Source of the DNA: Thermoleophilaceae bacterium
Lineage (GTDB): Bacteria > Actinomycetota > Thermoleophilia > Solirubrobacterales > Thermoleophilaceae
Assembly (NCBI GenBank): GCA_036269895.1
Contig: DATBDN010000004.1
Location: 4,759-68,758 of the forward strand
Direction of reading: 5' to 3'
DNA length: 64,000 nt
In this document: in pieces, positions 23,037-38,286 of the stretch
How positions within the stretch are numbered: the stretch's first letter is position 1
Layout: each line of letters opens with the position of its first letter
Program-made: the position numbers and the translations under genes
Notes under the pieces: generated by a model
The model's input: the letters and a program-made list of their open reading frames with translations, nothing else
Told to the model about the DNA's origin: nothing
Databases searched by the model: none

Positions 23037-25653
23037 TGCCCGGGTTGAGCAGGCGGAGCTCGCGCCCCCGGCGGACCGCATCGCGGCGGTCGGCCACGTC
23101 GAGCTTGCGGTAGACGTGCTTGAGGTGCGTCTTCACCGTGTTGACGGAGACGAACATCTCAGACGCAATCTCGGTGTTCGACATCATCGTCGGCAGGAAG
23201 CGCAGCACGGCGATCTCCCGCTCGGTGAGGGGCTCGAGCAACGGCCCGTTCGACTGACGCTCCGACGCTCCGTTGCCGTCGAGGTGGGCCAGCACGTCGC
23301 CTGCCAGCGCACGGTGCGAGGTGCCTCGCCGGATGTGGCGGCGGACCAGTGACCGCACCGGCGCGCCATTGCGCGTGAGCGGCCACACGAGCCCGCGCGG
23401 CTCGGCCAGATCGAGCGCGCGCTCCAGGGCGCGCAGTGCGCCGTCCTCATCACGCAGTTCGTCGCGGGCGATCGCGTCGAGCGCCCAAGCATCGACCCGC
23501 GCCGTCGGCCCCATCGCGTCGCGCTCGTCGGCGAGGAAATCCGCGACCGCGCGGATGGCCGCCTCGGGAGCGCCGCTCGCGAGCTCGATCCGCGCCAGCC
23601 CAACGGCCGGGTCGGACGCGTCCTCGTGCGCGTCGAGGTCGACCAGCAGCTTTCGTGCCTGGGCGGACTCGCCGAGCGTCATGAGCAGATCTGCCTCGAC
23701 CAGCGCCGCGACGACGCGCAGGAACGTCGGCAGCAGGTCGCCGGCGGCGCCTCGCGCGGCGCGGACCATGTCGAGAGCGACGAGCGGGTTACGGGTGGCG
23801 ACGAGCTCCGCTTCGAGGAGCGCAAGCGAAAGTGCCAAAAGCGGCTCTTCCGGAACGGACAGAGCGGCTTTCGCGCGACCCGCAAACTGAGCCGCGGTCG
23901 CCGGGTCGTTCGCGAGCAGCGCGAGCGACCCCAGCGTGACGCATGCCGCGGCTGCCGCCGCCGTCTTCGTCCACCCGCGCAGCTCCGCGATGTCGAGTGC
24001 GCCGAACGCGCGCACCCGTGCCTCTTCGAGCTGGTCGGTCCGCAGCGCGGCCAGCGACCCCCAGCCCTGCGCGCCGAACAGCAGGTAGTCGTTCTCACAG
24101 TCCCTGGCAAGGCCGGCGGCCTCTTGAAGGTGCTGGAGCGCCGAACTCGCGTCGCCGGTCCAGAACTCGGCCACACCGAGGCTGCCGAGCGTCAGCGCCC
24201 GCACGTCCTGCGAGACCGCGCGGTCCCAGTGGCCGCTGAGCACGGTCCGCGCCGCGCGCAGTGCGTCCTCGAGCTCGCGGCCGAAGCGCGCGCGGTAGAG
24301 CTGCGTCGAGGTGGCGGCGATGTCGAAGTGGCGGCGGCGCGCCTCCGGCAGCGGGTCGGCCGCCGCGATCGCGCCGTCGATCAGCTCCCCCACATCCATG
24401 ACGCCTGCGTCCAGCTGGATCCCTGCGAGCGCCAGCGCCAGCTCGGGACTCGCTCGCGTCACATCCTCGGGAATGGCGGCCAGAGCATCGCGCAGCATCG
24501 GACCCTCACCGCGGATCACCAGATGAACCCAGTGCTCGCCGATGATCTCGGCGCTCAGGTCCCAATCGTGGGCGGCGACGGCGTGGCGGATCGCCTCGTG
24601 CGGACTGTCCTGCGTGCGGAACCACAGTGCCGCTCGGCGGTGCAGTGGTGCGACCTCGTCCGGCATGGCCCGCGCCAGCTCGAGGCGGAGCACCTCGAGG
24701 AACATCGGGTGGTAGCTGTACCACCCTCCCGCGCCGTCGAGGGGCGTTATCAGGCCGTCGCGGTGCATGAGCGCGGACAGCAGGTCATCGCCGTCGCTTT
24801 GCTGCGTGAGCGCCTTGACGAGATCAGCGGTAAAGCGATCGGGGACTGACGTCCTGAGCAGGAACGTGCGCGCCGCGGGCGCCTGGCGCGAGATGACCTC
24901 GGACATCAGGTAGTCGCTGACGGCGTGGTCGGTGCCGGCGAAGCCATCGATGAAGGCGTGCGGGTCGGGATCGCCCTCGAGCGACAGCGCCGCCAGGCGC
25001 AGCCCGGCAGCCCAGCCCGCCGTGCTCTTGCAGAGAGTGTCGAGATCGTCGTCGGCCACTGCGAGGTCCAGCGCCGCGATCAGCTCGCGCGTCTCCTCGA
25101 GCGTGAACGCCAGGTCCTGTGCGCGGATCTCGCACATGCGGCCAGCCACGCGCAGCCGCTGGAGCCTGAGTGGAGGATCCGATCGCGTCAGTACGACCAG
25201 CCGCAGCCGGCTCGGCGCATAGTCGAGCAGGGTCTGGAGGTCGTCCATGACCGCCAGCTGCTCGACCTCGTGGAAGTCGTCGAGCACCAGGACAACGGGG
25301 TCGCCCGGCTCGGCGAGCGCCTCAACCAGAGCCGGCAGGAGCAGGTCGATGCGCACGCGCGGCGGCGCGGCAGGACCCCGTGCGATCGCGAGCGCCGGTT
25401 TCAGCGCCGTCACGACCGCGGTCCAGAAGCCACGCCGATCGTCGTCCTCCTTGCCGAGTGAGAGCCATGCGACCGTCCCGGGTGCCCTGCCTTCGCTCAG
25501 CCATGAAGCGACCAACGCGGTCTTCCCGGAGCCTGCGGGCGCCGAGACGAGCGTGAACGGATGGGTCGCGGCGCCGTCGAGCGCGTCGAGCAGCCGTGGC
25601 CTGCGCACCGTGACGGGTGGCGGCTGAGGCACGACGAGCTTCGTGGCGAACAA
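23023..25653 (-). CDS. Large ATP-binding LuxR-family regulator (LAL / MalT-like)
   Basis: N-terminal Walker A (SAPAGSGKT), a long TPR-like middle part, and a C-terminal LuxR HTH (LTEREIAVLRFLPTMMSNTEIASEMFVSVNTVKTHLKHVYRKLDV). Confidence 0.9.
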   Translation of the reverse strand: MFATKLVVPQPPPVTVRRPRLLDALDGAATHPFTLVSAPAGSGKTALVASWLSEGRAPGTVAWLSLGKEDDDRRGFWTAVVTALKPALAIARGPAAPPRVRIDLLLPALVEALAEPGDPVVLVLDDFHEVEQLAVMDDLQTLLDYAPSRLRLVVLTRSDPPLRLQRLRVAGRMCEIRAQDLAFTLEETRELIAALDLAVADDDLDTLCKSTAGWAAGLRLAALSLEGDPDPHAFIDGFAGTDHAVSDYLMSEVISRQAPAARTFLLRTSVPDRFTADLVKALTQQSDGDDLLSALMHRDGLITPLDGAGGWYSYHPMFLEVLRLELARAMPDEVAPLHRRAALWFRTQDSPHEAIRHAVAAHDWDLSAEIIGEHWVHLVIRGEGPMLRDALAAIPEDVTRASPELALALAGIQLDAGVMDVGELIDGAIAAADPLPEARRRHFDIAATSTQLYRARFGRELEDALRAARTVLSGHWDRAVSQDVRALTLGSLGVAEFWTGDASSALQHLQEAAGLARDCENDYLLFGAQGWGSLAALRTDQLEEARVRAFGALDIAELRGWTKTAAAAAACVTLGSLALLANDPATAAQFAGRAKAALSVPEEPLLALSLALLEAELVATRNPLVALDMVRAARGAAGDLLPTFLRVVAALVEADLLMTLGESAQARKLLVDLDAHEDASDPAVGLARIELASGAPEAAIRAVADFLADERDAMGPTARVDAWALDAIARDELRDEDGALRALERALDLAEPRGLVWPLTRNGAPVRSLVRRHIRRGTSHRALAGDVLAHLDGNGASERQSNGPLLEPLTEREIAVLRFLPTMMSNTEIASEMFVSVNTVKTHLKHVYRKLDVADRRDAVRRGRELRLLNPGITEH

Positions 25654-25744: not shown

Positions 25745-26101
25745 CTACCCCAAGCGGCAGTCACGCCACAATCCCTGCAACGCGCTTGGCGTCAACTCCG
25801 CTTTCGCCGTGTGGGCTGCGGCCCCAGCCGCCTCCCGAGCCGGCTCTGAGACCGGCACTCCGTCGGACAAGAGGATCACAACCGTGCGCGGCCTGACCGC
25901 GACGAGTCGCTGACAAGTCTCGTACCCGTCGAGGCCGGGCATGTCGACATCTACGATCGCCAGATCGGGCTCCAACTCGATCACGGCCTCGATCGCCTCC
26001 TCTCCCGACGCGACCTCGCCGACCGACGTGAAGCCCGGCGCCGCGACAACCACCGCCCGTGCCGCCCGCCGGGCAGCCTCGTCGTCATCGACGGTGAGCA
26101 C
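25745..26101 (-). CDS. Stand-alone response-regulator receiver domain
   Basis: TVDDD acidic pocket, DLAIVDVDMPGLDG phospho-acceptor Asp, VVILLSD, conserved Lys (AKAEL). No output domain. Confidence 0.8.
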   Translation of the reverse strand: MLTVDDDEAARRAARAVVVAAPGFTSVGEVASGEEAIEAVIELEPDLAIVDVDMPGLDGYETCQRLVAVRPRTVVILLSDGVPVSEPAREAAGAAAHTAKAELTPSALQGLWRDCRLG

Positions 26102-26134: not shown

Positions 26135-26353
26135 CTAGCCGCCGCCGGGCTCGTCGAGGCGGCGTACCTCGATCAACTCGAGCCCGAGCGAGCGGATCCG
26201 CTCGAGCACGCCGTGCAGCTCGGCCTGGTCACGCAGGTCGCCGCGCACGATCGTCTCGGCGGGCTTCACCGACGTCGTGAAGTCCTGGAAGGCGTCGGTG
26301 ACGGAGTCGCTCAGCCTGCCTTTGATCCGGAACTCGTAGCTGGAATCCGGCAC
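26135..26353 (-). CDS. Small conserved actinobacterial protein (~72 aa) of unknown function
   Basis: YEFRIKGRLSDSVTDAFQDF..PAETIVRGDLRDQAELHGVLERIRSLGLELIEVRRL matches a family I recognise by pattern only. The start is moved to GTG 26353, because the longer ORF would be translated across the operator array. Confidence 0.5.
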   Translation of the reverse strand: MPDSSYEFRIKGRLSDSVTDAFQDFTTSVKPAETIVRGDLRDQAELHGVLERIRSLGLELIEVRRLDEPGGG

Positions 26354-26388
26354 GCCAGCAACATCCCCGCGAAGGGGGTGATCTTGCG

Positions 26389-26405
26389 TCACCCCCACCG
26401 GGTGA
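26389..26405. promoter_or_regulatory. Palindromic site P1: TCACCC-CCACC-GGGTGA
   Basis: Perfect 6+5+6 inverted repeat in the divergent region between 26353(-) and 26502(+). It is preceded by GGGGGTGA (26374-26381). Confidence 0.7.
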
Positions 26406-26426
26406 GAGAGCAATGCCAACAGCGGC

Positions 26427-26443
26427 TCACCCACGGTGGGTGA
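26427..26443. promoter_or_regulatory. Palindromic site P2: TCACCC-ACGGT-GGGTGA
   Basis: Perfect inverted repeat. It is followed 24 bp later by the half-conserved site TCACCC-GCGCG-CCCCAG (26451-26467). Confidence 0.7.
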
Positions 26444-26501
26444 AGCCTGCTCACCCGCGCGCCCCAGAGGATCGCCGGACAGGCAACGAAGGAGGACGCG
26501 A

Positions 26502-26996
26502 ATGAGCAATCTCGTGGCGATCGCCTACGAGGACGAGGCAACTGCGCAGGAAGTGATGTCGGGACTGGCGCGGTTGCAGACCGAACATGCGATCGAGCTC
26601 GAGGATGCGGTGCTCGCGACACGCGACTCAGACGGAAAGGTCAAGCTCCATCAGCCGAGCACGGCCGGCGCCGGAGCGGCGGGCGGTGCGCTGTGGGGCG
26701 GCCTGATCGGCCTGCTCTTCCTCGCACCACTGCTCGGAATGGCGATCGGGGCGGCGACCGGCGCAGCCGCGGGAGCGCTTACCGACGTCGGCGTCGACGA
26801 CAACTTCCTGAAGGAGCTCGGCGGCAAGCTGGGTGAGGGCAACGCCGCGGTGATCGTCCTCGTGCGGAAGGCGACGCCCGACAAGGTGCTCGCCGAGATC
26901 GGCCACTATGGGGGCCACGTCCTTCAGACCTCGCTCAGCAACGAGCGCGAGGCGGAGCTGCAGGCCGCGCTCGACCGGCGCGGGGCGGCCGCCTGA
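26502..26996 (+). CDS. DUF1269-family membrane protein
   Basis: MSNLVAIAYEDEATAQEVMSGLARLQ..IELEDAVLATRDSDGKVKL., a Gly-rich TM segment, then VGVDDNFLKELG..L..G.AA.IVLV. The start is moved to ATG 26502 with a GAAGGAGGA ribosome-binding site. Confidence 0.8.
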   Translation: MSNLVAIAYEDEATAQEVMSGLARLQTEHAIELEDAVLATRDSDGKVKLHQPSTAGAGAAGGALWGGLIGLLFLAPLLGMAIGAATGAAAGALTDVGVDDNFLKELGGKLGEGNAAVIVLVRKATPDKVLAEIGHYGGHVLQTSLSNEREAELQAALDRRGAAA

Positions 26997-27007
26997 GGCC
27001 TCATGGG

Positions 27008-28081
27008 ATGCGCCGCCTGCCGGGAATACTCGTCGTACTCGCGAGCTTCGTCTTGTTCTTCGCAGCGCTCTCGGTGTGGGTCGCGCGCCAGGCGCTCGAC
27101 ACGAGCGACTGGGTCACCACCTCGAACGCGCTGGTACGCGATCCCCACATCCAGCAGGAGACGGCCAGCTACGTAGCCGACCAGCTCGTCGACCAGGCGG
27201 CAATCACGGACCGCATCCGGCAGGTCCTGCCGCCGCGCGCCGACAAGCTCGCTCCGACGATCGCCGGCGCGGTTCCCGAGCTGGCGGAGCGCGCGACGCT
27301 GCGCGCGCTGCGCTCGGGCGCGTTCCAGAAGCTCTGGGAGAACACGAATCGCCTCGCCCACAGGCAGCTGGTCAGGGCGGTCACCGGAGATACCAGCCGC
27401 ACGGTCGTGTTCGACCTGCGGCCGATGCTCGGCCAGGTCGCCACGCGCATCGGCCTGGGGCCGGACGTCGTCAACAAGCTCCCCCCGGACCGCGGCAAGA
27501 TCACGATCGTGCGGCCCAACCAGCTGGTGACCGCGCGTAAGATCGCGCACGCCCTGAGGACGCTGGCGATCGTTCTCGTCCTGCTTGCGCTGGTGTTGAT
27601 GGTGGCGGCCGTGTGGAGCTCGCACGATCGTCGCCGGACGCTCATGCAGACGGGGCTCGGCATCCTCTTCGCGGGACTGCTCGTGCTGGTGCTCAGGCGG
27701 GTCCTCGGCCACGTGATCGTGGATGACCTCACATCGGGCGGGGCATCCGAGCCAGCGGCCCAGTCGACCTGGGACATCGGCACGTCGTTGCTGCGCCAGA
27801 TCGCGGCCAGCGTCGTCGCGCTGGGGATCGTGGTGATGTTCTGCGCGTGGCTCGCGGGGCCGGCCCGGTGGGCGACCCGCGCTCGCGGCTGGATCAGCCC
27901 ATCGCTGCGGGAGCAGCCCGCGATCGCGTACACGATCGCCCTGGTGTTCCTCGTCCTGCTGCTCGCACTCGGCGTGATCCCGGGCAGCAGCCGGCCGGTG
28001 CTCGTGCTGATCTACGTCGTCTTGGTGGTCGCGGGCGTCGCGGCGCTGCGGCGTCAGGTGCAGGCCGAGGCCGGCCCCTGA
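27008..28081 (+). CDS. Integral membrane protein of unknown function
   Basis: 357 aa with an N-terminal TM, a soluble middle part and 4-5 C-terminal TMs. It starts 11 nt after the DUF1269 gene. Confidence 0.65.
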   Translation: MRRLPGILVVLASFVLFFAALSVWVARQALDTSDWVTTSNALVRDPHIQQETASYVADQLVDQAAITDRIRQVLPPRADKLAPTIAGAVPELAERATLRALRSGAFQKLWENTNRLAHRQLVRAVTGDTSRTVVFDLRPMLGQVATRIGLGPDVVNKLPPDRGKITIVRPNQLVTARKIAHALRTLAIVLVLLALVLMVAAVWSSHDRRRTLMQTGLGILFAGLLVLVLRRVLGHVIVDDLTSGGASEPAAQSTWDIGTSLLRQIAASVVALGIVVMFCAWLAGPARWATRARGWISPSLREQPAIAYTIALVFLVLLLALGVIPGSSRPVLVLIYVVLVVAGVAALRRQVQAEAGP

Positions 28082-28090
28082 CGAGATGCC

Positions 28091-28495
28091 TCAGCCGTCG
28101 TAGCCCTCTTCGAAGCCACGCCAGAACTCGTTTGCCGCCGAATCGTGGCTATGGCGGAAGGCGTCCGCCTGCGCACGGACCTCCTGGGCTGAGTCCTTGA
28201 CCTGCGTCAAGTTGCCCTGCTTGAGCCCCTGAGCCGCCTGCTGCAGCGTGTCGCCCTGCGTTGCGACCTGCGTACGGACCGTCTTGCGCACGTCGTCACT
28301 GATGCCGTTCACCGTGTTGCGGAGCTCCTTCACCGCGTTCCGCGCATCGTCGACCGAGCGCGAGTCGAACACCGCCCGCGTCGCCTGGCCGACCTTCTTG
28401 CCGTCGTTGTGCGCCTTGTCCTCGGGCGAGTCGCCACAGGCGCCGAGCACGACGACTGCGGCGAGAGCAGCCGCGACCAAGCGAGCGCGCCTCAT
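28091..28495 (-). CDS. Lipoprotein (helical, Gln/Ala-rich)
   Basis: MRRARLVAAALAAVVVLGAC has a lipobox. Its ATG overlaps the stop of the HdeD-like gene (ATGA). Confidence 0.7.
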   Translation of the reverse strand: MRRARLVAAALAAVVVLGACGDSPEDKAHNDGKKVGQATRAVFDSRSVDDARNAVKELRNTVNGISDDVRKTVRTQVATQGDTLQQAAQGLKQGNLTQVKDSAQEVRAQADAFRHSHDSAANEFWRGFEEGYDG

Positions 28496-29064
28496 GCAAT
28501 CCCCGCCTTGTGCAGGTCGCGCAGCTGCCAGCCGGCCACCGCCTCGAGCGTGCCCTGAAGGATCAGGCCGATCGCCGAGATCAGCACGAGCGTGGCGAGG
28601 CCGATTGTCGGCTCCGCGAGGATGATCGTGCCCGCCGCGATCCCGAGGATCCCGAGGCCGATGTTCCAGGCACGCCCGTACGGGATGACGATCCCGCGAG
28701 TCAGCTGTACCACGCCGCTCACGACCCACCAGAAGCCGATCACCCATGCGATCGCGAGCACCGAGTCGGCGGGACGAACAACCAGGAAGAGGCCGGCCAG
28801 CACCGTTATCAAGCCCAGCAGCACGAGCGCGATCCGCAGCCCGACGCTCATCGCGTCCGAGCCGCCGATACCACGCACGAGCGTCGCGACTCCAACGACA
28901 AGCAGGTACGCGCCGATGATCACCCCCACCACCAGCAGGCTCGGACCCGGCCAGACGAGGATGATGATCCCGATCAGGATCGTCAATAAGCCTGCCATGA
29001 ACGGGATCCACCAGTACTGCCCTGGATTGGCCGGCTGAAGAGCGGTGGGGTCCACCATTGCCAT
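28492..29064 (-). CDS. HdeD-family (DUF308) membrane protein
   Basis: Six TM helices with the repeated G..L...G pattern (WWIPFMAGLLTILIGIIILVWPG.SLLVVGVIIGAYLLVVG). Confidence 0.8.
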   Translation of the reverse strand: MAMVDPTALQPANPGQYWWIPFMAGLLTILIGIIILVWPGPSLLVVGVIIGAYLLVVGVATLVRGIGGSDAMSVGLRIALVLLGLITVLAGLFLVVRPADSVLAIAWVIGFWWVVSGVVQLTRGIVIPYGRAWNIGLGILGIAAGTIILAEPTIGLATLVLISAIGLILQGTLEAVAGWQLRDLHKAGIA

Positions 29065-29100
29065 ACGCAGAATGGTCCGTCCGCGTGGAGGCAGCGGGCA

Positions 29101-29117
29101 TCACCCGCGGTGGGTGA
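29101..29117. promoter_or_regulatory. Palindromic site P3: TCACCC-GCGGT-GGGTGA
   Basis: Perfect inverted repeat. Its centre is 45 nt upstream of the HdeD-like start (29064, minus strand). Confidence 0.7.
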
Positions 29118-29176
29118 TCAGACCGCGTGGCGGGCGCTGCACGGCTGTGGCTCCTCGGTCCCCCTAGGGCGGCTTC

Positions 29177-29401
29177 TCAATGCGACAGGAGCTTGCGCTT
29201 GGCGGCGCCGAACTCCTGCGGCGTGAGCGAGCCTGCGTCGAGCATCGCCTTCAGCTGCGTGAGCTGCGCGGCCATGTCGGGTGGTTGGGTAGGCGGCTGG
29301 GCGTGGCGCGCGCGGACGCGGCGCCGGGCATACCAGGTGCCGCCGATCACAGCCGCTCCCAGGAACGGGCGCCGCCCGAACACTGGCGGACGTAAAAGCA
29401 T
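29177..29401 (-). CDS. SHOCT-domain small membrane protein
   Basis: C-terminal QLTQLKAMLDAGSLTPQEFGAAKRKLL matches the SHOCT pattern. There is one N-terminal TM. The start is moved to ATG 29401. Confidence 0.6.
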   Translation of the reverse strand: MLLRPPVFGRRPFLGAAVIGGTWYARRRVRARHAQPPTQPPDMAAQLTQLKAMLDAGSLTPQEFGAAKRKLLSH

Positions 29402-29436
29402 GCGCAGAGCGTCCTGAAGACGGGGGTGACGGCGGA

Positions 29437-29453
29437 TCACCCCCGCTGGGTGA
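29437..29453. promoter_or_regulatory. Palindromic site P4: TCACCC-CCGCT-GGGTGA
   Basis: Perfect inverted repeat in the divergent region between 29401(-) and 29480(+). It is preceded by GGGGGTGA (29422-29429). Confidence 0.7.
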
Positions 29454-29479
29454 GCCTCGCGCAGATACCGTCCCCGCCG

Positions 29480-30565
29480 ATGGCACAGGGCGTGCGCCTA
29501 GGCGACAGGGTCGAGCAGGCGATCGAAGAGCATGCGGACGCCGAGCTCGAGATCGCACGCGGCGAGCACGAAGCGCAGCGGACGCACCCCCGCAGCCTGC
29601 GGCGCACGATCATCTGGCTCGCTATCACGGGCATCTCCCTCTACCTGGTGGCCCCCAGCGTCCTGGACACACTCGCGTCGTGGCGCGACATCAAGAGGTT
29701 CGCCCCACAGTGGCTGCTCGTGATGCTGGTCGCTCAGACGGCCGCCATGGCGTGCCTGTGGGCGCTCCAACACATCGCGATCGGCGTCGCCAGGTGGTCT
29801 GCCGTGATCACGTCCCAACTGGCGGGGAACGCGATGGCCAAGGTCGCCCCCGGCGGCGGCGCGGTCGGCTCGGCGCTGCAATACCGGATGCTCGTCACGG
29901 CCGAGGTGCCACCGCGGCCGGCGGTCTCGGGCCTCACCGCAGCCAACGTCCTCACCTTCGCCGTCGTCCTTGCGCTGCCCGTGCTCGCGATCCCGGCTCT
30001 CATCCGCGGCTCCGTCGACCGCACCCTGACGGAGACGGGGATCGCGGGGCTCGTCGTCTTCGTCGTCCTCGCCGCGCTCGGTGTCGTCGTCCTCGCGCTC
30101 GACGGGCCATTGCGGTGGATCGGCCGAACGGCGCAGCGAATCCGCAACCGCGTGCGGCGCAACTGCGAGCCGTTGCAGACGCTGCCCGACCGCCTCATCC
30201 GCGAGCGCGACCGGCTCCTGAACACGCTCGGTCCGCGCTGGAAGCGGGCGCTGCTGGCCACCGTCGGCCGCTGGGCCTTCGACTACGCAACGCTGCTGGC
30301 CGCGCTCGCCGCTGTCGGCGTGCATGCGCGCCCCGCGCTCGTGTTGCTCGCGTTCTGCGCCGCTCAGCTGCTCGCGCAGATTCCTATCACCCCGGGCGGA
30401 CTCGGATTCGTCGAGGCCGGGCTGACGGCGATGCTCTCACTCGCCGGCGTCGGCCCGGGCAACGCCGTGCTGGCGACATTCGCGTACCGGCTGTTCTCGT
30501 ACTGGCTGCCGATGCCGGTGGGGCTTGGCGCCTGGGTCTGGCACCGCCGCCGCTACGGCGCCTGA
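29480..30565 (+). CDS. Lysylphosphatidylglycerol-synthase-TM-region (UPF0104, flippase-like) membrane protein
   Basis: Multi-TM protein with the C-terminal motif QIPITPGGLGFVEAGLTAML. The start is moved to ATG 29480. Confidence 0.75.
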   Translation: MAQGVRLGDRVEQAIEEHADAELEIARGEHEAQRTHPRSLRRTIIWLAITGISLYLVAPSVLDTLASWRDIKRFAPQWLLVMLVAQTAAMACLWALQHIAIGVARWSAVITSQLAGNAMAKVAPGGGAVGSALQYRMLVTAEVPPRPAVSGLTAANVLTFAVVLALPVLAIPALIRGSVDRTLTETGIAGLVVFVVLAALGVVVLALDGPLRWIGRTAQRIRNRVRRNCEPLQTLPDRLIRERDRLLNTLGPRWKRALLATVGRWAFDYATLLAALAAVGVHARPALVLLAFCAAQLLAQIPITPGGLGFVEAGLTAMLSLAGVGPGNAVLATFAYRLFSYWLPMPVGLGAWVWHRRRYGA

Positions 30566-30586
30566 CCGCCGATGGACAGCGGGGAA

Positions 30587-30603
30587 TCACCCGTTCCGGG
30601 TGA
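30587..30603. promoter_or_regulatory. Palindromic site P5: TCACCC-GTTCC-GGGTGA
   Basis: Perfect inverted repeat, 22 nt after the upstream stop. Its centre is 45 nt before ATG 30640. The degenerate site TCACTC-CGGCT-GGGCAT follows at 30611-30627. Confidence 0.7.
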
Positions 30604-30639
30604 GCGCCGGTCACTCCGGCTGGGCATACCGTCGAACGC

Positions 30640-32646
30640 ATGATCCTGAGGCGCCTGCCCGCGATGCTGGCCATCTGGGTCTCGGCAGCGCTCGCGGTCC
30701 TGCTCTGCAGCTGGATCTTCTCGAGCGTCAACGTGACCACCTTCGGAGCGGCGCTGGTCGCCGCGCTCGCGATTGGCCTGGCCAACGCGCTCCTCTGGCC
30801 GCTGCTGATCCGCCTGACGCTTCCGCTCACGGTGCTCACGCTTGGACTCGGCGCGCTGGTCCTGAACGGCGCGATCGTGCTGCTCGTCGCCGCCATAACC
30901 CCAGGTCTGACTGTCAAGGGCCTCGGCGGCGGGATCGTGTTGGCGCTGGCCATGACCGCCGTCACGACGTTCGCCTCGTCGATCTTCTTCATCGACGACG
31001 ACGCACGCGTGGCGCGTCATCTGGTCCGCCGCGCGGCGGAGCGGCGCGACGAGGTGATCAAGACCGACGTGCCCGGCGTTCTGTTCCTCGAGATCGACGG
31101 GCTCGCGCACGAAGTGCTGCGCCGCGCGATGCGCGACGGCAACGCGCCCGAGCTGGCGCGCTGGGTGCGGGACGGATCTCACCATCTGATCGGCTGGGAG
31201 ACTGACTGGTCGTCGCAGACAGGTGCATGTCAAGCCGGTTTGCTCCACGGCAACAACGACGACATGCCTGCCTTCCGCTGGTGGGAGAAGGACCGCGACG
31301 CCCCGATCGTCACGAACCACCCGCGCGACGCTGCCGAGCTCGAACGCCGGGTGTCGAACGGCCGCGGGCTGCTGCACGCCGACGGCGCCAGCAGGGCCAA
31401 CATCCTGTCCGGCGACGCGGTGTATTCGCTGCTCACGATGAGCCGCGTGCTCGACGCACGCGTACGTGGCTACGGTCGCGACTACTTCACGTACTTCGCG
31501 AGCCCCTTCAACACGGCGCGCACGCTGCTGTTGTCGATAGTGGACATCGCCGCCGAGCTGCGCGCTGCCGCGGTGCAGCGACGGCGCGACGTGCGCCCGC
31601 GAATCGAACGCGACTGGAAGTACGCGCTCGTGCGCGCGTGGGGCACGACCGTGCAGCGTGATCTGCAGGTCGAGTCGGTGCTCGGAGACGTGTACACCGG
31701 CCGGCCGGTCGTCTACTCGACGTTCCTTGCCTACGACGAGGTGGCGCATCATTCCGGCCTGGAGCGTGCGGACACGCTGGGGGTGCTGCGGCACGTCGAT
31801 CAGGCGATCGGGCGCATCGCGCGCGCGGCACGCAACGCTCCGCGTCCTTACGAGATCGTCGTGCTCTCGGATCACGGCCAGACCCAGGGCGAGACCTTCC
31901 TGCAGCGCTACGGCGAGACGCTCGAGCAGCTCGTCCAGGCCGCGTGCGCGACCGAGGACGTGCGGGCGGACAGCTCCGGCGAGGACGAGGCGATGGGCCG
32001 GCTCTCGGCGGCGCTCACGGAGGCGGGCGGCACCGGCAACACGGCGGGCCGCGCGGTTGCCCGCGTCACCCGCGGGCGCCAAGTCGACGGCGAGGTGAGG
32101 CTCGAGAAGAGCGACCGCAAGGAAGGCGACGAGATCCCCGAGATCAGCGTGATGGCCTCGGGCTGCCTTGGGCTGATCACGTTCCCGCGGATGCCTGGCC
32201 GCGCGACCTACGCTCAGATCACCGAGCGATACCCGAGCCTGATCGACACGCTCCGCAACCACCCCGGCATCGGCTTCGTGATGGTCGACGGCGTGGTCTA
32301 CGGCGCCCACGGCACGCGCAATGTCCGCGCCGGCGACGAGGCCGAGGGCCAGGACCCGCTCGCGCCGTACGGGCCCAACACCGCGCAACACGTGGGGCGC
32401 ACCGATGGGTTCCCTCACTGCCCGGACATCGTGGTCAACAGCACGTGGTGGGCAGAGACCGAGGAAGTTGCCGCGTTCGAGGAATTGGTCGGCTCGCACG
32501 GCGGCCTCGGCGGACCGCAGTCGTACCCATTCGTGCTGGGCCCGGCAAAGCTGCCGCAGCCTGAGGGTGCGGTGGTCGGCGCCGAGTCGATGCACCGCGT
32601 CCTGCGGGGGTGGCTCGCGCACCTCGGGCAGGACGCCTACCGATGA
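30640..32646 (+). CDS. Fusion protein: N-terminal 4-TM holin-family-4-like domain plus alkaline-phosphatase/nucleotide-pyrophosphatase superfamily domain
   Basis: N-terminal ~120 aa form 4 TM helices (LANALLWPLLIRLTLPL..). The rest has metal-site motifs LFLEIDGL, YDEVAHHSG, VVLSDHGQ and GSHGGLGG. Confidence 0.8.
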   Translation: MILRRLPAMLAIWVSAALAVLLCSWIFSSVNVTTFGAALVAALAIGLANALLWPLLIRLTLPLTVLTLGLGALVLNGAIVLLVAAITPGLTVKGLGGGIVLALAMTAVTTFASSIFFIDDDARVARHLVRRAAERRDEVIKTDVPGVLFLEIDGLAHEVLRRAMRDGNAPELARWVRDGSHHLIGWETDWSSQTGACQAGLLHGNNDDMPAFRWWEKDRDAPIVTNHPRDAAELERRVSNGRGLLHADGASRANILSGDAVYSLLTMSRVLDARVRGYGRDYFTYFASPFNTARTLLLSIVDIAAELRAAAVQRRRDVRPRIERDWKYALVRAWGTTVQRDLQVESVLGDVYTGRPVVYSTFLAYDEVAHHSGLERADTLGVLRHVDQAIGRIARAARNAPRPYEIVVLSDHGQTQGETFLQRYGETLEQLVQAACATEDVRADSSGEDEAMGRLSAALTEAGGTGNTAGRAVARVTRGRQVDGEVRLEKSDRKEGDEIPEISVMASGCLGLITFPRMPGRATYAQITERYPSLIDTLRNHPGIGFVMVDGVVYGAHGTRNVRAGDEAEGQDPLAPYGPNTAQHVGRTDGFPHCPDIVVNSTWWAETEEVAAFEELVGSHGGLGGPQSYPFVLGPAKLPQPEGAVVGAESMHRVLRGWLAHLGQDAYR

Positions 32647-33389
32647 AGCTGACCTGGCTCGGCCACGCCACCGTCGTGATCGACACCGCCGGCGGCCGGC
32701 TGGTGACCGACCCGCTCCTGCGCTCGCGCGTCGCACACCTCCGCCGGCACGCCGCGCCGGTCAGGGCCCCGGAGAAGGTCGACGTGGTGCTCTTGTCGCA
32801 CCTTCACTACGACCACCTCGACGTGCCGTCGCTGCGCAAGCTGAAAGCGCCCGTTGTCGCGCCGCCGGGCAGCGAGCGGACGCTGCAGCGGCTGCACTTG
32901 GAGGTCTCCGAGCTGGCGGCGGGCGAGCAGATCGCAGTCGGCGGCGCCGAGGTCACCGCCGTCCGCGCGGTGCACGACGGCCGCCGCTCGCCGTTGGCGG
33001 GGCGCCGCGACGACGACTCGATCGGGTACCTCGTCGAGGGCGACGACCAACGCGTCTACTTCGCCGGCGACACCGAGGTCTTCGCCGGCATGCAGGATTT
33101 CGGGCCGCTGGACGCCGCGCTCGTCCCGATCTGGGGCTGGGGGCCGCGGCTGGGGCCCGGCCACATGGACCCGAGCCAGGCCGCCGAAGCGCTGACGCTG
33201 CTGCGGCCGGCGGTCGCCGTGCCGATCCATTGGGGCACGTTCCTGCCGATAGGGGGCTACCGCCGCCACCACGACCTGCTGCATACGCCGGTCGAGCAGT
33301 TCCGCCTGCGCGCCGCCGAGCTGGCGCCCGACGTCCGCATCGAGGTCCTGGACCCCGGCGGTTCCCTCGTCATCACCCAGCGTGGGTGA
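32643..33389 (+). CDS. MBL-fold metallo-hydrolase
   Basis: MKLTWLGHATVVI..; VLLSHLHYDHLD (HxHxDH). ATGA overlap with the upstream gene. Confidence 0.85.
   Translation: MKLTWLGHATVVIDTAGGRLVTDPLLRSRVAHLRRHAAPVRAPEKVDVVLLSHLHYDHLDVPSLRKLKAPVVAPPGSERTLQRLHLEVSELAAGEQIAVGGAEVTAVRAVHDGRRSPLAGRRDDDSIGYLVEGDDQRVYFAGDTEVFAGMQDFGPLDAALVPIWGWGPRLGPGHMDPSQAAEALTLLRPAVAVPIHWGTFLPIGGYRRHHDLLHTPVEQFRLRAAELAPDVRIEVLDPGGSLVITQRG
33373..33389. promoter_or_regulatory. Palindromic site P6: TCACCC-AGCGT-GGGTGA (occupies the last 17 nt of the MBL gene, stop codon included)
   Basis: Perfect inverted repeat. The half-conserved site TCACCC-GTCGA-GCGCCC follows at 33397-33413. Confidence 0.7.
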
Positions 33390-33445
33390 TGGCCCGTCAC
33401 CCGTCGAGCGCCCAGGATTGAACAACGACCGAAAGGAGTTCGTGG

Positions 33446-33859
33446 ATGTCGACGCAGTACGACATACCCCCGCAGGAGGAGCCGTCAGCTTGGGCCAGCG
33501 GCGGCTTGGTGTTCGCCGGGACACTGCTGGTACTCGGTGGGATCTTCCAGGCGATCGACGGGATCGTCGCGATCGCCAACGACGACTTCTTCGTCAAGAC
33601 CCAGCACTACACGTTCAACCTGGACGTGACGGCGTGGGGATGGATCCACCTGATCCTCGGCATCCTGATGTTCGCTATCGGGCTCGGCCTATTCAGCCAG
33701 GCCGCCTGGGCCGGCGTCGGCGCGATCGCGATCGCGATGTTGAGCGCGATCGCGAACTTCTTCTTCATCCCCCACTACCCGATCTGGTCGCTGGTCATCA
33801 TCGGGCTCGACATCTGGGTGATCTGGGCCCTGACGCGCCCAGGCGTTATTCGCACCTAG
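33446..33859 (+). CDS. 137-aa four-TM membrane protein (paralog A)
   Basis: MSTQYDIPPQEEPSAWASGGLVFAG..FFVKTQHYTFNLDVTAWGWIHLILG..IANFFFIPHYPIWSLVIIGLDIWVIWAL. It is clearly homologous over its full length to 35216..35629. Confidence 0.75.
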   Translation: MSTQYDIPPQEEPSAWASGGLVFAGTLLVLGGIFQAIDGIVAIANDDFFVKTQHYTFNLDVTAWGWIHLILGILMFAIGLGLFSQAAWAGVGAIAIAMLSAIANFFFIPHYPIWSLVIIGLDIWVIWALTRPGVIRT

Positions 33860-35119
33860 GCCGACGAGCCAGGCGGTCACGGCCGCCAGAATCGCGATCG
33901 GCGCGGTCTCTGCGGCAACGCTGCCTGCGAGCAGCGTCGCCAGCACCGCCCCGAAAAACGGCAGGCCGGAGACTGCCGCTGATCCCGCTGCGATGCCGGC
34001 GACGGCCGCCGGGGTGAGCGCAAAGCCGGGCAGGACGTGCGAGCCAAGCACGCCGGCCGCACAGCCGAGCGAGATCGCCGGGAAGATCGGGCCCCCGCGA
34101 AAGCCGCTGGCCAGCGACAGCAGGTAGCCCGCGCCCTTGAACGCGAGAACGGCGAGCAGGACACCGGCGGAGCCCTCGGCGATGTAGTCCCCCGAAGCGG
34201 CTTGGCCGGAGAAGAGCACGAAGTCCACCGGGCGGTCGGTAAGCCCGCGGAACACGGCCGCCAGGCTGCCGATCGCGAGGCCCGCGACCACGAGACGCGA
34301 GAGCACGGGCGCCGACCAGCGAGCAGCGACCGCCGCGGCTGCCGGGCGGAAACTTGCGATTGCCACGGCGACGATCGCCGCGACCGGCAGCGACCACAGG
34401 ATGTCGACGACGTGAACAGTCGGATAGTCGGGCAGCCCTGGCAGGCCGAGCGACTGCTCGTGAACCCCAGGCCAGCCGGCCACACCGGTGAAGACGAGTG
34501 AGCCGACGCCGGCGGCCACGAACCCTGGGAGCAGCGCCCGCCCGACGACTGCCGCGGGCACCCTGCCGGAAGCGGAGACCGCCTCGAAGAAGAAAAGCAG
34601 GACCGGCAGCGGCCCTCCGAACAGCCCGGCCATCGCCGCGAACGCCCCTGCCAGCGCAAGCGGCATCGCCTGCGGCCCTGTCGCGCGCAGGGCGCGCGCC
34701 GCGACTACCCCGACCGTCAGCCCCAGCGCCAGGAGCGGCGCCTCGGGGCCAAGCACGATGCCGCCTGCCAGGGCGATCAGGGTGACAGCAAGCACCGAAA
34801 CGACGTTGATCGGCGGGGCTTGCTCCATCGACAAGCCCTGTAGCGGTGAATGGCCGCCGTGGCCGGGCAGTCGCAACGCGAGCGCCACGATGACGCCGGC
34901 GAGCGCGGGCACCAGCACGACATACCACCACGACGGCTCCTGCCAGCCGAACCAATCCGGCACGTCGTTCCAGACCAGCGTTGTGGCGCCGTGGAGCACC
35001 GACTCGAAGATCGCGGCTGCCGCCGCCGCGGGCACGCCGATGAGCGCGCCGGCCACGAGACCGCCCACGAGCGTGCGAGTCCCGTCACTCGTGTTCACGG
35101 CCACCGGCCCGACGTTCAC
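33689..35119 (-). CDS. ClC-family voltage-gated chloride channel / H+-Cl- antiporter
   Basis: GHGGHSPL(QG), GGIVLGPEAPL and GFRGGPIFP selectivity-filter-like motifs, 10+ TM. The last ~55 codons are antisense to 33446..33859. Confidence 0.85.
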   Translation of the reverse strand: MNVGPVAVNTSDGTRTLVGGLVAGALIGVPAAAAAAIFESVLHGATTLVWNDVPDWFGWQEPSWWYVVLVPALAGVIVALALRLPGHGGHSPLQGLSMEQAPPINVVSVLAVTLIALAGGIVLGPEAPLLALGLTVGVVAARALRATGPQAMPLALAGAFAAMAGLFGGPLPVLLFFFEAVSASGRVPAAVVGRALLPGFVAAGVGSLVFTGVAGWPGVHEQSLGLPGLPDYPTVHVVDILWSLPVAAIVAVAIASFRPAAAAVAARWSAPVLSRLVVAGLAIGSLAAVFRGLTDRPVDFVLFSGQAASGDYIAEGSAGVLLAVLAFKGAGYLLSLASGFRGGPIFPAISLGCAAGVLGSHVLPGFALTPAAVAGIAAGSAAVSGLPFFGAVLATLLAGSVAAETAPIAILAAVTAWLVGLGANNAWARQGPDHPDVEPDDDQRPDRVVGDEEEVRDRAQHRDRDRADAGPGGLAE

Positions 35120-35140
35120 GGCCGCCAGGGTGACGACGCG

Positions 35141-35157
35141 TCACCCTCGCCGGGTGA
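35141..35157. promoter_or_regulatory. Palindromic site P7: TCACCC-TCGCC-GGGTGA
   Basis: Perfect inverted repeat flanked by TCACGG-N6-GGGTGA (35116-35133) and TCACCC-GCGGT-GGCCCG (35165-35181). Confidence 0.7.
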
Positions 35158-35215
35158 GGCCCGATCACCCGCGGTGGCCCGACTATGGGCTCAAATCCGA
35201 GTGAGGAGCGGCTCG

Positions 35216-35629
35216 ATGAGTACTCAATACGACCCGCCGCGGACTGACCAGCCCTCAGGCTGGGCGACCGGCGGTCTGATGTTCGCGGCATGCGCGCTGA
35301 CGCTGGTCGGGATCTTCCAGTTTCTCACCGGGCTCGTCGCGATCATCAACGACAACTTCTTCGTCGTCTCGCACAACTACACGTTCAACCTCGACACGAC
35401 CGCATGGGGCTGGATCCATCTGCTGATCGGCGTCGCGGTGTTCCTCGTCGGTCTCGGCCTGTTCACCGGCAGGGAGTGGGCGGCTGTCGGCGGCATCGCC
35501 CTCGCGATGCTGAGCGCAATCGCCAACTTCTTCTTCATCCCCTACTACCCCATCTGGTCGCTGCTCATCATCGGGCTCGACGTCTGGGTCATCTGGGCGC
35601 TGTCGCGGGCGGGCGTGCTACGCAGCTGA
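35216..35629 (+). CDS. 137-aa four-TM membrane protein (paralog B)
   Basis: MSTQYDPPRTDQPSGWATGGLMFAA..FFVVSHNYTFNLDTTAWGWIHLLIG..IANFFFIPYYPIWSLLIIGLDVWVIWAL. GAGGAG ribosome-binding site. Confidence 0.75.
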   Translation: MSTQYDPPRTDQPSGWATGGLMFAACALTLVGIFQFLTGLVAIINDNFFVVSHNYTFNLDTTAWGWIHLLIGVAVFLVGLGLFTGREWAAVGGIALAMLSAIANFFFIPYYPIWSLLIIGLDVWVIWALSRAGVLRS

Positions 35630-36718
35630 TCTCTCGCCGGCGCCGCTCAGGTCGTGCGATATGTGCACGATCGCCGAGGTGACCGGCGCCGCCAGCACCA
35701 GGCCGGCCATCCCGAACAGCGCGCCGCCCGCGAGCGTCACAACGAGCACGGCCAGCGGGTGTATGTCAAGCGCAGCGCCATACGCAAACGGCTGTACTAG
35801 CTGCTGAAGCACGCCGTTGCCAAGCAACGCGATCACGGCCATCGCGAGGGCACCGTCGGCACCCTGTGCTCCGAGGGCCAGCAGCACCGCGAACACCCCC
35901 GCCGTCCATGCGCCTAGGTACGGCACGTAGGCGCCGAGGAAGGTGACAATCGCGATCGCTCCTGCAAGGGGCACGCCGATGATCAACGCGCCGAGCCCGA
36001 TCACGACCGCGTTGAAGGCGGCCACAACGGTGACACCGCGGAAGTAGCCGCGCAGCGCGCGCAGCATCTCGCTGACGACCGTGTGCGCGATCGGCCGCGG
36101 CACGCCCGCGTGACGCTCGACCCAGTCGCGCAGCGACGGGCCGTCTTTGAGCAGGAAGAACAGCGCCAAAGCGGTGAACGCGGCGAACGCGGCCAGCGAC
36201 GCCAGCGCCGACAAGCCGCTTGCCACACCGTGGAGCAGCGCCGCGCCCGCCGACGAGACCGACGACTTGGCCTCGGCCTCTCCGTTGTCCGCGGCCGACT
36301 GGTCCACGCCCACGTCCTTCACGGCCGTCCCGACCTTGTCGACCGCCGCAGAGAGACCGTTGCTGATCCGGTCCGACTGCCCCGTGATCCCGCCGATCAC
36401 GACGACCGCGACGACGGCGCCGAGCGCGACGATCGCCAGGAGCACCGACGCGCTACCGAGCGCGCGCGGCACACGGTGGTGCGCGAGCCACCCGATCACC
36501 GGGGCCGCCACCGCAGCGATGATCGTCGCAGTCAGCAGTGGCAAGACGATGACGCTCGTGAGGGCGAGCAGCCAAACCGCGCCCACGACGATCAGGACGA
36601 TGCCGACCAGCAGCCACGCGACCCCGCCGGCATCTCGCAGCCATTTCGGGGCTGCGAACACGCCCGTCAGTTCGCCTGCGTCGACAGCGCCGGTGTCAGC
36701 AGCCGCGTCCTCCACCAC
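35618..36718 (-). CDS. AI-2E family (PerM-like) transporter
   Basis: 8 TM with the characteristic FLGAYVPYLGAW and LLGNGVLQQLVQP segments. Confidence 0.85.
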   Translation of the reverse strand: MVEDAAADTGAVDAGELTGVFAAPKWLRDAGGVAWLLVGIVLIVVGAVWLLALTSVIVLPLLTATIIAAVAAPVIGWLAHHRVPRALGSASVLLAIVALGAVVAVVVIGGITGQSDRISNGLSAAVDKVGTAVKDVGVDQSAADNGEAEAKSSVSSAGAALLHGVASGLSALASLAAFAAFTALALFFLLKDGPSLRDWVERHAGVPRPIAHTVVSEMLRALRGYFRGVTVVAAFNAVVIGLGALIIGVPLAGAIAIVTFLGAYVPYLGAWTAGVFAVLLALGAQGADGALAMAVIALLGNGVLQQLVQPFAYGAALDIHPLAVLVVTLAGGALFGMAGLVLAAPVTSAIVHISHDLSGAGERSAA

Positions 36719-36751
36719 CCAGATCCTGCGAGCGCAGCGGGTGAGCCAGCA

Positions 36752-36768
36752 TCACCCCGCGCGGGTGA
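36752..36768. promoter_or_regulatory. Palindromic site P8: TCACCC-CGCGC-GGGTGA
   Basis: Perfect inverted repeat in the divergent region between 36718(-) and zwf. It is preceded by GGGTGA at 36739-36744. Confidence 0.7.
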
Positions 36769-36792
36769 GGCCCAGGTCGAGGCCGACCCAAG

Positions 36793-36809
36793 TCACCCGT
36801 GATGGGTGA
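36793..36809. promoter_or_regulatory. Palindromic site P9: TCACCC-GTGAT-GGGTGA
   Basis: Perfect inverted repeat. Its centre is 43-46 nt upstream of the zwf start (GTG 36844 / ATG 36847). Confidence 0.7.
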
Positions 36810-36846
36810 TTGACGGCGCAATGACCACCTGAAATGAATCGCGGTG

Positions 36847-38286
36847 ATGGCAACCACAACGGCCCCGCGCGCGGCTGACGCCCAGGTCACGCGCGATTCT
36901 GGCCCACTTCAAGCCGACGTGTTCGTCGCATTCGGCATCACGGGCGACCTGGCAAAGGTCATGACGCTTCGCTCGCTCTACCGCCTCGAGCGGCGCGGCC
37001 TCCTCGAGTGCCCGATCGTCGGCGTCGCCGTCGACGATTGGACCGTCGACGACCTGCGCGAACGGGCGCGCAGCGCGATCGTCGACGGCGGCGACGAACT
37101 CGACGAAGCCGTCTTCAAGCGGTTCGCGGACCGACTCTCATACGTCAGCGGCGATTTCGGCGATCCGGAGACGTTCGAACGGCTCAAGAAACACCTGGGC
37201 GAGGTGCAATCGCCGGTCTTCTACCTCGAAATCCCGCCGTTCCTCTTCGGTCGCGTCGTGAAGGGCCTGCATGACGCCGGCATGACGAAGAATGCGCGCG
37301 TCGTCGTCGAAAAGCCGTTCGGCCACGACCTCGGGTCCGCCCACGAGCTCGCGGACGAGCTGCACCAGTACATCGACGAGTCGCAGCTGTTCAGGATCGA
37401 CCACTTCCTCGGAAAGATGGGACTGGTCGAGATCCTCTACCTCCGGTACGCGAACGCGATGTTCGAACCGGTCTGGAACCGCAACTACATCGGCTCCGTC
37501 CAGATCACGATGGCGGAGTCCTTCGGCGTGGCCGACCGTGGGCATTTCTATGACCCGGTTGGCGCCCTGCGCGACGTGGTGGTCAACCACCTGATGCAGG
37601 TGGTCGCGGCCACCGCAATGGAGCCGCCGGGCGCGCGCGACGCACGGGCACTGAAGGACGCGATCTACTCGCTGTTCTCCTCGATCCCGGCGGCAGACCC
37701 GCACCATTACGTGCGCGGCCAGCACGACGGCTACCTCGACATCGACGGCGTCGCTCCCAACTCGACCACCGAGACCTACGCGGCGCTGCGCATCGACATC
37801 GACAACTGGCGCTGGTCGGGCGTCCCGTTCTTCATCCGCACCGGGAAGCTGATGCCGGCGACCCAGACCGAGGTGCGCGTCGTGTTCCGCGAGCCGCCAC
37901 GGCTTGGCTTCCACCACGGCAATCGGCGGCCGGAGCCGAACCAGCTAGTCGTCAGGCTCGACCCGACGACCGGGATCCGCCTGCAGGTCGACGCGAAGCG
38001 CCACGACGCCGCCGACGCGGGCGAGATCGCGCTGGACATGGAGTTCGCGCTCGAGGGCGGCGAGGGCGCGGCTCCGTACGAGGTCCTGCTGCTCGCCGCG
38101 ATGCGCGGCGACGCGACGCGCTTCACCCGCCAGGACGGAATCGAGCAGGCGTGGCGGATCATGGCTCCGCTGCTCGAATCGCCGCCGCCGGTGCATCCGT
38201 ACGCGCCCAGCACATGGGGGCCGAAGGAGGCTGACGAAGTCGTCGCGGGCTTCGGCCGCTGGCACGAGCCCTGGATCGTCCAATGA
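36847..38286 (+). CDS. zwf: Glucose-6-phosphate 1-dehydrogenase
   Basis: FGITGDLAK dinucleotide motif, EKPFGHD, RIDHFLGK active-site signature. The start could be GTG 36844. Confidence 0.9.
   Translation: MATTTAPRAADAQVTRDSGPLQADVFVAFGITGDLAKVMTLRSLYRLERRGLLECPIVGVAVDDWTVDDLRERARSAIVDGGDELDEAVFKRFADRLSYVSGDFGDPETFERLKKHLGEVQSPVFYLEIPPFLFGRVVKGLHDAGMTKNARVVVEKPFGHDLGSAHELADELHQYIDESQLFRIDHFLGKMGLVEILYLRYANAMFEPVWNRNYIGSVQITMAESFGVADRGHFYDPVGALRDVVVNHLMQVVAATAMEPPGARDARALKDAIYSLFSSIPAADPHHYVRGQHDGYLDIDGVAPNSTTETYAALRIDIDNWRWSGVPFFIRTGKLMPATQTEVRVVFREPPRLGFHHGNRRPEPNQLVVRLDPTTGIRLQVDAKRHDAADAGEIALDMEFALEGGEGAAPYEVLLLAAMRGDATRFTRQDGIEQAWRIMAPLLESPPPVHPYAPSTWGPKEADEVVAGFGRWHEPWIVQ

Follow-up and report, generated by a model that had tools for sequence, protein, structure and literature searches.

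Our analysis of a 64,000-nt stretch from the metagenome-assembled genome of a Thermoleophilaceae bacterium (class Thermoleophilia; 3.86 Mb, 69% G+C) shows that nine copies of the palindrome TCACCC-N5-GGGTGA lie within 10.4 kb adjoining the gene for a LAL (MalT-like) regulator. We refer to this whole stretch as the window and use its positions throughout. The boxes follow a strict sequence grammar, which is conserved in other genomes and co-located with the LAL gene, and they probably mark about ten promoters that are switched on by the adjacent MalT-like regulator. We consider it likely that an oligomerised MalT-like activator places its helix-turn-helix (HTH) domains on the palindrome and on a third, downstream box, and so recruits RNA polymerase to weak promoters; in this model the transcription start sites (TSSs), the binding protein and the sign of regulation are all predicted.

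Few large regulators of actinobacteria are as numerous as those of the LAL/MalT-like type; many of them control antibiotic gene clusters, and the operators and promoter geometries of very few have been defined. The grammar described here (palindrome, N7, third box, N10, -10 hexamer, 6-7 nt, TSS) lets regulons be predicted from sequence alone, with a reach that includes uncultured Thermoleophilia, Micromonospora, Dactylosporangium and Chloroflexota. In this genome the predicted regulon comprises membrane and stress-type proteins, plus a zwf-led operon for sugar oxidation and respiration.

Palindrome spacing and promoter layout

The source genome contains 15 perfect TCACCC-N5-GGGTGA palindromes, nine of them within positions 26389-36809 of the window (starts at 26389, 26427, 29101, 29437, 30587, 33373, 35141, 36752 and 36793), where shuffled sequence gives an expectation of 0.01. 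Their spacing is exact. Across the whole genome, and for spacers of 0-12 nt, we counted 15 copies of the inward pair TCACCC-Nx-GGGTGA with x = 5 and zero to two copies with each other x (two sites for the N4 version), and the outward pair GGGTGA-Nx-TCACCC occurs seven times at x = 7, every copy in the window, and zero to two times at other x. An exact TCACCC stands at offset 24 from the palindrome start in 7 of 30 palindrome flanks, far beyond chance given a background of 2.3e-4 per position.

We printed every palindrome in both orientations and found a single pattern, in which the palindrome (offsets 0-16) is followed by a 7-nt linker, a third box TCACCC at offsets 24-29, ten further bases, and a NANNNT hexamer at offsets 40-45. 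The hexamer is present at offset 40 in all nine source-genome units that have a third box, against a background of 0.021, and in 16 of 17 third-box units from relatives' loci that had not been selected for it (in the 17th it is shifted by one base); these two counts are the sole unbiased test of the hexamer. The NANNNT hexamer behaves as a -10 element. The promoter units of the window are as follows.

26360-26405, minus strand: unit of the operon for a 72-residue protein and the LAL regulator; palindrome 26389-26405, third box 26376-26381, -10 GATGTT 26360-26365, predicted leaderless GTG 26353
26427-26472, plus strand: DUF1269 gene unit; palindrome 26427-26443, third box 26451-26456, -10 GAGGAT 26467-26472
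ATG 26502, plus strand: DUF1269 gene start; leader of ~23 nt with AAGGAGG
29072-29117, minus strand: DUF308 gene unit; palindrome 29101-29117, degenerate third box, -10 GACCAT 29072-29077, predicted leaderless ATG 29064
29408-29453, minus strand: SHOCT gene unit; palindrome 29437-29453, third box 29424-29429, -10 GACGCT 29408-29413, predicted leaderless ATG 29401
29466-29482, plus strand: LPG_synthase_TM gene with its own hexamer TACCGT, 8 nt before ATG 29480; palindrome centre 35 nt away
30587-30642, plus strand: holin-like/phosphodiesterase gene unit; palindrome 30587-30603, third box TCACTC 30611-30616, -10 TACCGT 30627-30632, predicted leaderless ATG 30640
33373-33418, plus strand: unit of the first DUF7144 gene (a); palindrome 33373-33389, third box 33397-33402, -10 CAGGAT 33413-33418, ATG 33446
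35102-35186, both strands: bidirectional four-box element; shared palindrome 35141-35157, third boxes 35128-35133 (minus) and 35165-35170 (plus)
35112-35117, minus strand: -10 GAACGT of the ClC channel gene promoter in the four-box element, predicted leaderless GTG 35104
35181-35186, plus strand: -10 GACTAT of the promoter of the second DUF7144 gene (b) in the four-box element, ATG 35216
36713-36768, minus strand: AI-2E transporter gene unit; palindrome 36752-36768, third box 36739-36744, -10 CAGGAT 36723-36728, predicted leaderless GTG 36715
36793-36849, plus strand: zwf (G6PD) promoter; palindrome 36793-36809, -10 ATGAAT 36834-36839, predicted leaderless ATG 36847

The zwf promoter has no third box and carries TTGACG (36810-36815) at the usual place of the linker. 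At 35128-35170 two divergent promoters share one palindrome, which is flanked by a third box to the left and another to the right, and this four-box arrangement recurs in at least eight other loci.

At seven of the window promoters the start codon falls 6-7 nt after the hexamer (26353, GTG; 29064; 29401; 30640; 35104, GTG; 36715, GTG; 36847), and we predict that these seven are leaderless. Leaderless transcription appears to be common in this genome, since a NANNNT hexamer is over-represented 6-7 nt ahead of candidate starts genome-wide, with T, G and C all frequent as its first base. The genes at 26502, 33446 and 35216 have leaders of 21-23 nt with a clear Shine-Dalgarno sequence. The fixed quantity is the distance from palindrome to -10, with the hexamer 40 nt after the palindrome start and the predicted TSS 52-53 nt after it. 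Relative to this predicted TSS, the palindrome would be centred at about -44/-45 with its right half at about -41 to -36, the linker would lie at -35, and the third box would occupy about -29 to -24.

The first-pass annotation of this DNA, whose coordinates were all correct, had reported that the gene-proximal site is centred 41-46 nt upstream of the start codon. The arithmetic holds, and the reference points were mixed: the centre of a supposed second site was used for 26502, 33446 and 35216, and that of the perfect site for the rest. With the palindrome centre as the single reference point, the distance is 44-46 nt for the seven predicted leaderless genes, 65-67 nt for the three with leaders, and 35 nt for 29480. 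The leadered genes had come out at 41-46 nt because the centre of the pseudo-site is 24 bp closer, which offsets a leader of ~22 nt. The gene at 29480 had already been singled out as an outlier with a site centre only 35 nt upstream, and it is one; it has its own TACCGT hexamer, and the nearby palindrome, by its layout, primarily serves the minus-strand SHOCT promoter.

The same annotation had described the 24-bp repeat as a second site with an intact left half and a degenerate right half. TCACCC (TCACTC at 30611) does follow the sites at 26427, 30587, 33373 and 35141 by exactly 24 bp, across a 7-nt linker. Its supposed right half did not survive alignment: in 162 aligned units, offsets 35-40, which abut the -10 hexamer, are at background composition, and the "second site" is thus one half-site and not a second palindrome. 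Likewise, right-half copies (GGGTGA) at 26376, 29424, 35128 and 36739 lie 13 bp before the sites at 26389, 29437, 35141 and 36752, as had been noted, but they are not upstream elements; they are the third boxes of the divergent minus-strand promoters of the small-protein/LAL operon and of the SHOCT, ClC channel and AI-2E transporter genes.

The 162-unit alignment is biased at the third-box and -10 positions, because loci L008-L035 and L041-L120 were picked by patterns containing the third box and L041-L120 also by the A and T of the -10 hexamer. Within it the half-sites are invariant, with no compensatory changes, while the N5 loop, the linker and the N10 segment vary freely. Weak additional preferences are seen for A/T just outside the palindrome, for G (offset 6) and C (offset 10) just inside it, and for G at linker position 2. 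The linker carries no -35 consensus, and the first base of the -10 hexamer is mostly G or C, with T in 15 of 162 units compared to about a third of leaderless candidates genome-wide. From the absent -35 consensus and the rarity of T as first -10 base, these promoters look intrinsically weak.

Two other readings of the boxes were rejected. Helical phasing of the boxes is ruled out by the step itself, as 24 bp corresponds to 2.3 helical turns; neighbouring boxes are separated by 11 and 13 bp from centre to centre, and the third box sits about a quarter turn off the face of the palindrome. The idea that the third box, or the right half of the palindrome, is the -35 element of an alternative sigma factor was rejected because they stand 10 and 23 bp from the -10 hexamer.

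The adjacent LAL regulator and conservation of the boxes

The minus-strand three-box promoter at 26360-26405 precedes a three-gene operon with the LAL gene in last place.

26135-26353, minus strand: conserved 72-residue protein; first gene behind the three-box promoter, predicted leaderless GTG 26353
25745-26101, minus strand: putative receiver-only protein, with a D..DxDMPG pattern recognised by eye; between the genes for the 72-residue protein and the LAL regulator
23023-25653, minus strand: LAL/MalT-like regulator of 876 residues; STAND NTPase, MalT-type TPR and GerE HTH (Pfam AAA_16, TPR_MalT, GerE)

The Pfam matches of the LAL regulator score 8e-09 for AAA_16, 3.5e-13 for TPR_MalT (50 bits against a cut-off of 45) and 3.1e-15 for GerE. 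Residues 5-413 match the structure of E. coli MalT (8BOB) with E = 1.9e-51, and the C-terminus matches the GerE-type HTH domains in structures of VraR, ChrA and GerE. The 72-residue protein matches no Pfam family; its homologues are 38-60% identical and, in the loci examined, are encoded between the box promoter and the LAL gene. The protein may modulate the LAL regulator or act as its partner.

The 24-bp spacing noticed at the outset is kept in relatives. In a sample of 401 genomes from the class, seven carry the three-box pattern R-N7-L-N5-R, where L and R are the left and right half-sites, and its reversed control gave no match. Named genomes yielded more than 120 stretches that fit the full composite when half-site base 5 could be S; we roughly estimate fewer than ten chance matches. 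Among the matches listed, carriers include Solirubrobacterales, Solirubrobacteraceae, Conexibacter, Baekduia, Thermoleophilaceae and Gaiellaceae, and also Micromonospora and Dactylosporangium (Micromonosporaceae), several Chloroflexota and one Dormiibacterota metagenome-assembled genome.

We searched 80 loci, none longer than 8 kb and all picked purely on a DNA pattern, for the genes of the window. A LAL homologue is encoded in 25 and a homologue of the 72-residue protein in 19, followed by DUF7144 (10), the 357-residue membrane protein (7), DUF308 (7) and DUF1269 (6); the putative receiver protein had no match at 1e-8 in these loci. Only the LAL gene and the gene for the 72-residue protein track the boxes across genomes. 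In G023 an orthologue of the LAL regulator with 40% identity is flanked by two three-box sites, and in G413, G360, G364 and G225 no more than ~7 kb separates the best LAL homologue from a three-box site. From this co-location, the conservation and the homology, the boxes are probably binding sites of the adjacent LAL regulator (23023-25653), which we take as their predicted reader.

The recognition helix of the LAL regulator, encoded at 23023-23260 (minus strand), provides a further link. Its residues co-vary with base 5 of the half-site (loci L038, L039, L040 and L115): proteins with the helix ..NTVKTH..YRKL adjoin TCACCC boxes, and proteins with ..NTVRTH..Y(A/S)KL adjoin TCACGC-N5-GCGTGA at four loci, in G025, G024, G008 and Solirubrobacter pratensis (L115). 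The TCACGC-N5-GCGTGA variant has an identical layout, with the N7 linker, the third box and NANNNT at offset 40. This covariation supports the LAL regulator as the reader and, given that the loci are related, stops short of proof.

Further LAL genes beside related boxes were seen in Dactylosporangium maewongense (L161-L165, G431:C8:264879-280995), a species available in culture, which carries three LAL paralogues and five TCAYCC-N5-GGRTGA palindromes in a compact island of ~15 kb.

Mode of regulation and competing explanations

The closest known system is that of Actinoplanes sp. SE50/110, where the LAL regulator MalT (ACSP50_3915) activates a 51-gene island (PMC7567727). There, 17 mapped TSSs have a TCATCC-N5-GGATGA motif overlapping the -35 region, with the 3' end of the motif 34.4 +/- 1.0 nt from the TSS; deletion of the regulator gene lowered transcription and overexpression raised it (PMC7567727). 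The two systems share a LAL/MalT-like LuxR-family regulator encoded within the block of its known or predicted target genes, a 6-N5-6 palindrome just upstream of or overlapping the -35 region at many promoters of one island, and targets that are mostly poorly annotated membrane or enzyme genes. They differ in one base of the half-site, which is TCACCC/GGGTGA here and TCATCC/GGATGA there. Since format and predicted position match the Actinoplanes MalT sites, activation is the likelier sign of regulation in the window, by analogy with this homologue. The text of the Actinoplanes study makes no mention of a third box, half-sites, oligomers or cooperativity (PMC7567727), and it appears to leave undescribed the third box, the N10 gap ahead of the -10 hexamer and the sharing of one palindrome by two promoters. 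In a sampled TCATCC-type (Actinoplanes-like) cluster of only three sites, a box-like hexamer stands at the third-box offset in one. A literature search on the motif strings returned only a paper on the Streptomyces regulator BldM, and no published TCACCC-N5-GGGTGA LAL box. The layout thus belongs to a known kind, the LAL/MalT boxes; what had not been described is the third box with the fixed spacing to the -10 hexamer.

E. coli MalT must oligomerise, its promoters need several boxes, and its proximal box replaces the -35 element. Each of those boxes is an asymmetric decamer; one is proximal, and the distal ones form direct repeats. Like the LAL regulator of the window, whose N-terminal domain is homologous, E. 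coli MalT is a STAND ATPase with a GerE HTH. In contrast, the window has strict palindromes and, downstream of the -35 position, a third box in inverted orientation, with the core hexamer GGGTGA where the E. coli box has GGA(T/G)GA; the box of E. coli and Klebsiella MalT is summarised as GGGGA(T/G)GAGG (PMC7567727). Three or four boxes per element would fit MalT-type binding to several boxes and an oligomerisation that depends on ATP and inducer.

Together, these comparisons suggest how the activator might work. Three GerE-type HTH domains of the oligomerised LAL regulator would occupy the three boxes and so bracket the -35 position, and four would be engaged where one palindrome serves two divergent promoters. 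The bound regulator would bring RNA polymerase to promoters whose -10 is weak and which lack a -35 element. Transcription would begin 6-7 nt past the hexamer, and where this point coincides with the start codon, as it often would, the mRNA is leaderless. The regulator operon would be autoregulated through its own three-box promoter. The first-pass annotation had read the arrangement as cooperative binding of several dimers over a promoter with a short leader. Its fixed geometry over a promoter stands, and protein beyond one dimer is plausible. But the extra element is one half-site, giving three or four boxes and not an array of dimer sites; most units are predicted to be leaderless, with the invariant distance running to the -10 hexamer and not to the start codon; and homology with Actinoplanes MalT points to an oligomerising MalT-like activator as the likely reader, with its palindrome abutting the -35 region, not to a series of repressor dimers coating the promoter.

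We hold more tentatively, and on balance doubt, that the third box is itself a functional contact, with protomers of a single LAL oligomer on the palindrome upstream of the -35 position and on the third box in the spacer, replacing -35 recognition entirely at mostly leaderless promoters with weak -10 elements, and with one palindrome able to fire two divergent promoters, in a layout shared by Actinomycetota and Chloroflexota. If true, this would be an activation geometry not described for MalT-type regulators, and the layout offers a concrete test of how an oligomeric STAND activator sits on DNA. Phage lambda CII at PRE offers no more than an analogy: there the recognition repeats straddle the -35 element and activator and sigma region 4 could share the DNA; CII is an unrelated protein that reads direct TTGC repeats.

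Several points weigh against activation by the LAL regulator. A box in the -35/-10 spacer would sooner be expected of a repressor or a MerR-type activator than of a class II activator. The palindrome 3' end is predicted, on the basis of the -10 hexamers and leaderless starts, to lie 36-37 nt from the TSS, compared to 34.4 nt in Actinoplanes. The helix-box covariation has exceptions, with an R-type helix beside TCACCC in L031 and mixed boxes in L036 and L040, and the loci are phylogenetically non-independent. In the Micromonospora loci of 8 kb, no LAL gene was found near the boxes, and in M. tulbaghiae ~11 kb separates the LAL homologue from the perfect palindrome nearest to it.

The spacer position raises the question of whether the three-box element is instead a repressor operator, at which the LAL regulator or another factor would occupy -52 to -24 and block RNA polymerase until a signal arrives. 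Such a role would fit an element that overlaps the core promoter in its entirety, and the promoter at 29480, with its canonical TACCGT, has a palindrome right on top of its -35 position. We nevertheless regard repression as improbable. It is textbook knowledge that MalT-family STAND proteins bind DNA in their active, oligomeric state, and promoters that have no -35 consensus and mostly no T at the first -10 base are unlike the strong promoters that need repression. The homologous regulator of Actinoplanes, with the same palindrome format at nearly the same position, is an activator (PMC7567727).

Another GerE-type protein could also be the reader, such as a BldM-like NarL-family response regulator or a PAS-LuxR protein encoded on contig C6 of the source genome, with the LAL gene being only a member of the regulon. 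The Group I box of Streptomyces venezuelae BldM, TCACcCgnncGgGTGA, is a 16-bp palindrome with an N4 spacer and the identical half-site TCACCC/GGGTGA (PMC4125116). It is read by a GerE-type HTH dimer and shares the flanking g/c preference inside the spacer, seen here as G at offset 6 and C at offset 10. Palindromes of the source genome also precede genes for a HisKA_3 kinase and a PAS-GerE regulator. Against this, the genome has 15 sites with N5 and two with N4, and this strict N5 spacing makes a BldM-type reader unlikely; BldM is moreover an orphan response regulator and not a LAL protein, and no third box has been described for it. Across genomes the boxes are tracked by the LAL gene and the gene for the 72-residue protein alone, and it is the LAL recognition helix that co-varies with base 5 of the box. 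We therefore give a different reader very little weight.

Finally, the repeats might act in RNA as hairpins or attenuators, or be chance or mobile repeats. The palindromes could form 6-bp stems if transcribed. An RNA hairpin or three-arm element was rejected, as the half-sites are invariant and not co-varying, the N5, linker and N10 segments are free to vary, and the elements lie upstream of the predicted transcription starts; chance is countered by nine palindromes observed where shuffles predict 0.01 and by reversed-pattern controls that gave no match. These explanations are barely credible.

Further palindromes and gene overlaps

Beyond the window, the source genome has six more perfect palindromes, at C93:37040, C93:44276, C144:4645, C6:1444, C197:851 and C177:30487. 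The genes behind them encode a HisKA_3 histidine kinase, a sulfatase, a PAS-GerE (PAS-LuxR) regulator, a DUF1326 protein and several unannotated open reading frames; the PAS-GerE gene is the one behind the palindrome on contig C6, and the kinase gene has a predicted leaderless ATG after TAGTGT. Among these six, only C197:851 has a third box, with one mismatch. In another genome (G031, locus L002), two perfect palindromes at 6528 and 13070 lie inside a near-identical repeated segment that resembles coding sequence; having neither a third box nor a -10 hexamer, they are probably unrelated to the regulon and were set aside.

Within the window, two palindromes are placed as internal promoters of a co-directional gene string. 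The palindrome at 33373-33389 covers the last codons and the TGA stop of an MBL-fold gene, and that at 30587-30603 begins 22 nt after the stop of the LPG_synthase_TM gene. The minus-strand ClC channel gene and a plus-strand DUF7144 gene are convergent, and their 3' ends overlap by ~170 bp (33689-33859).

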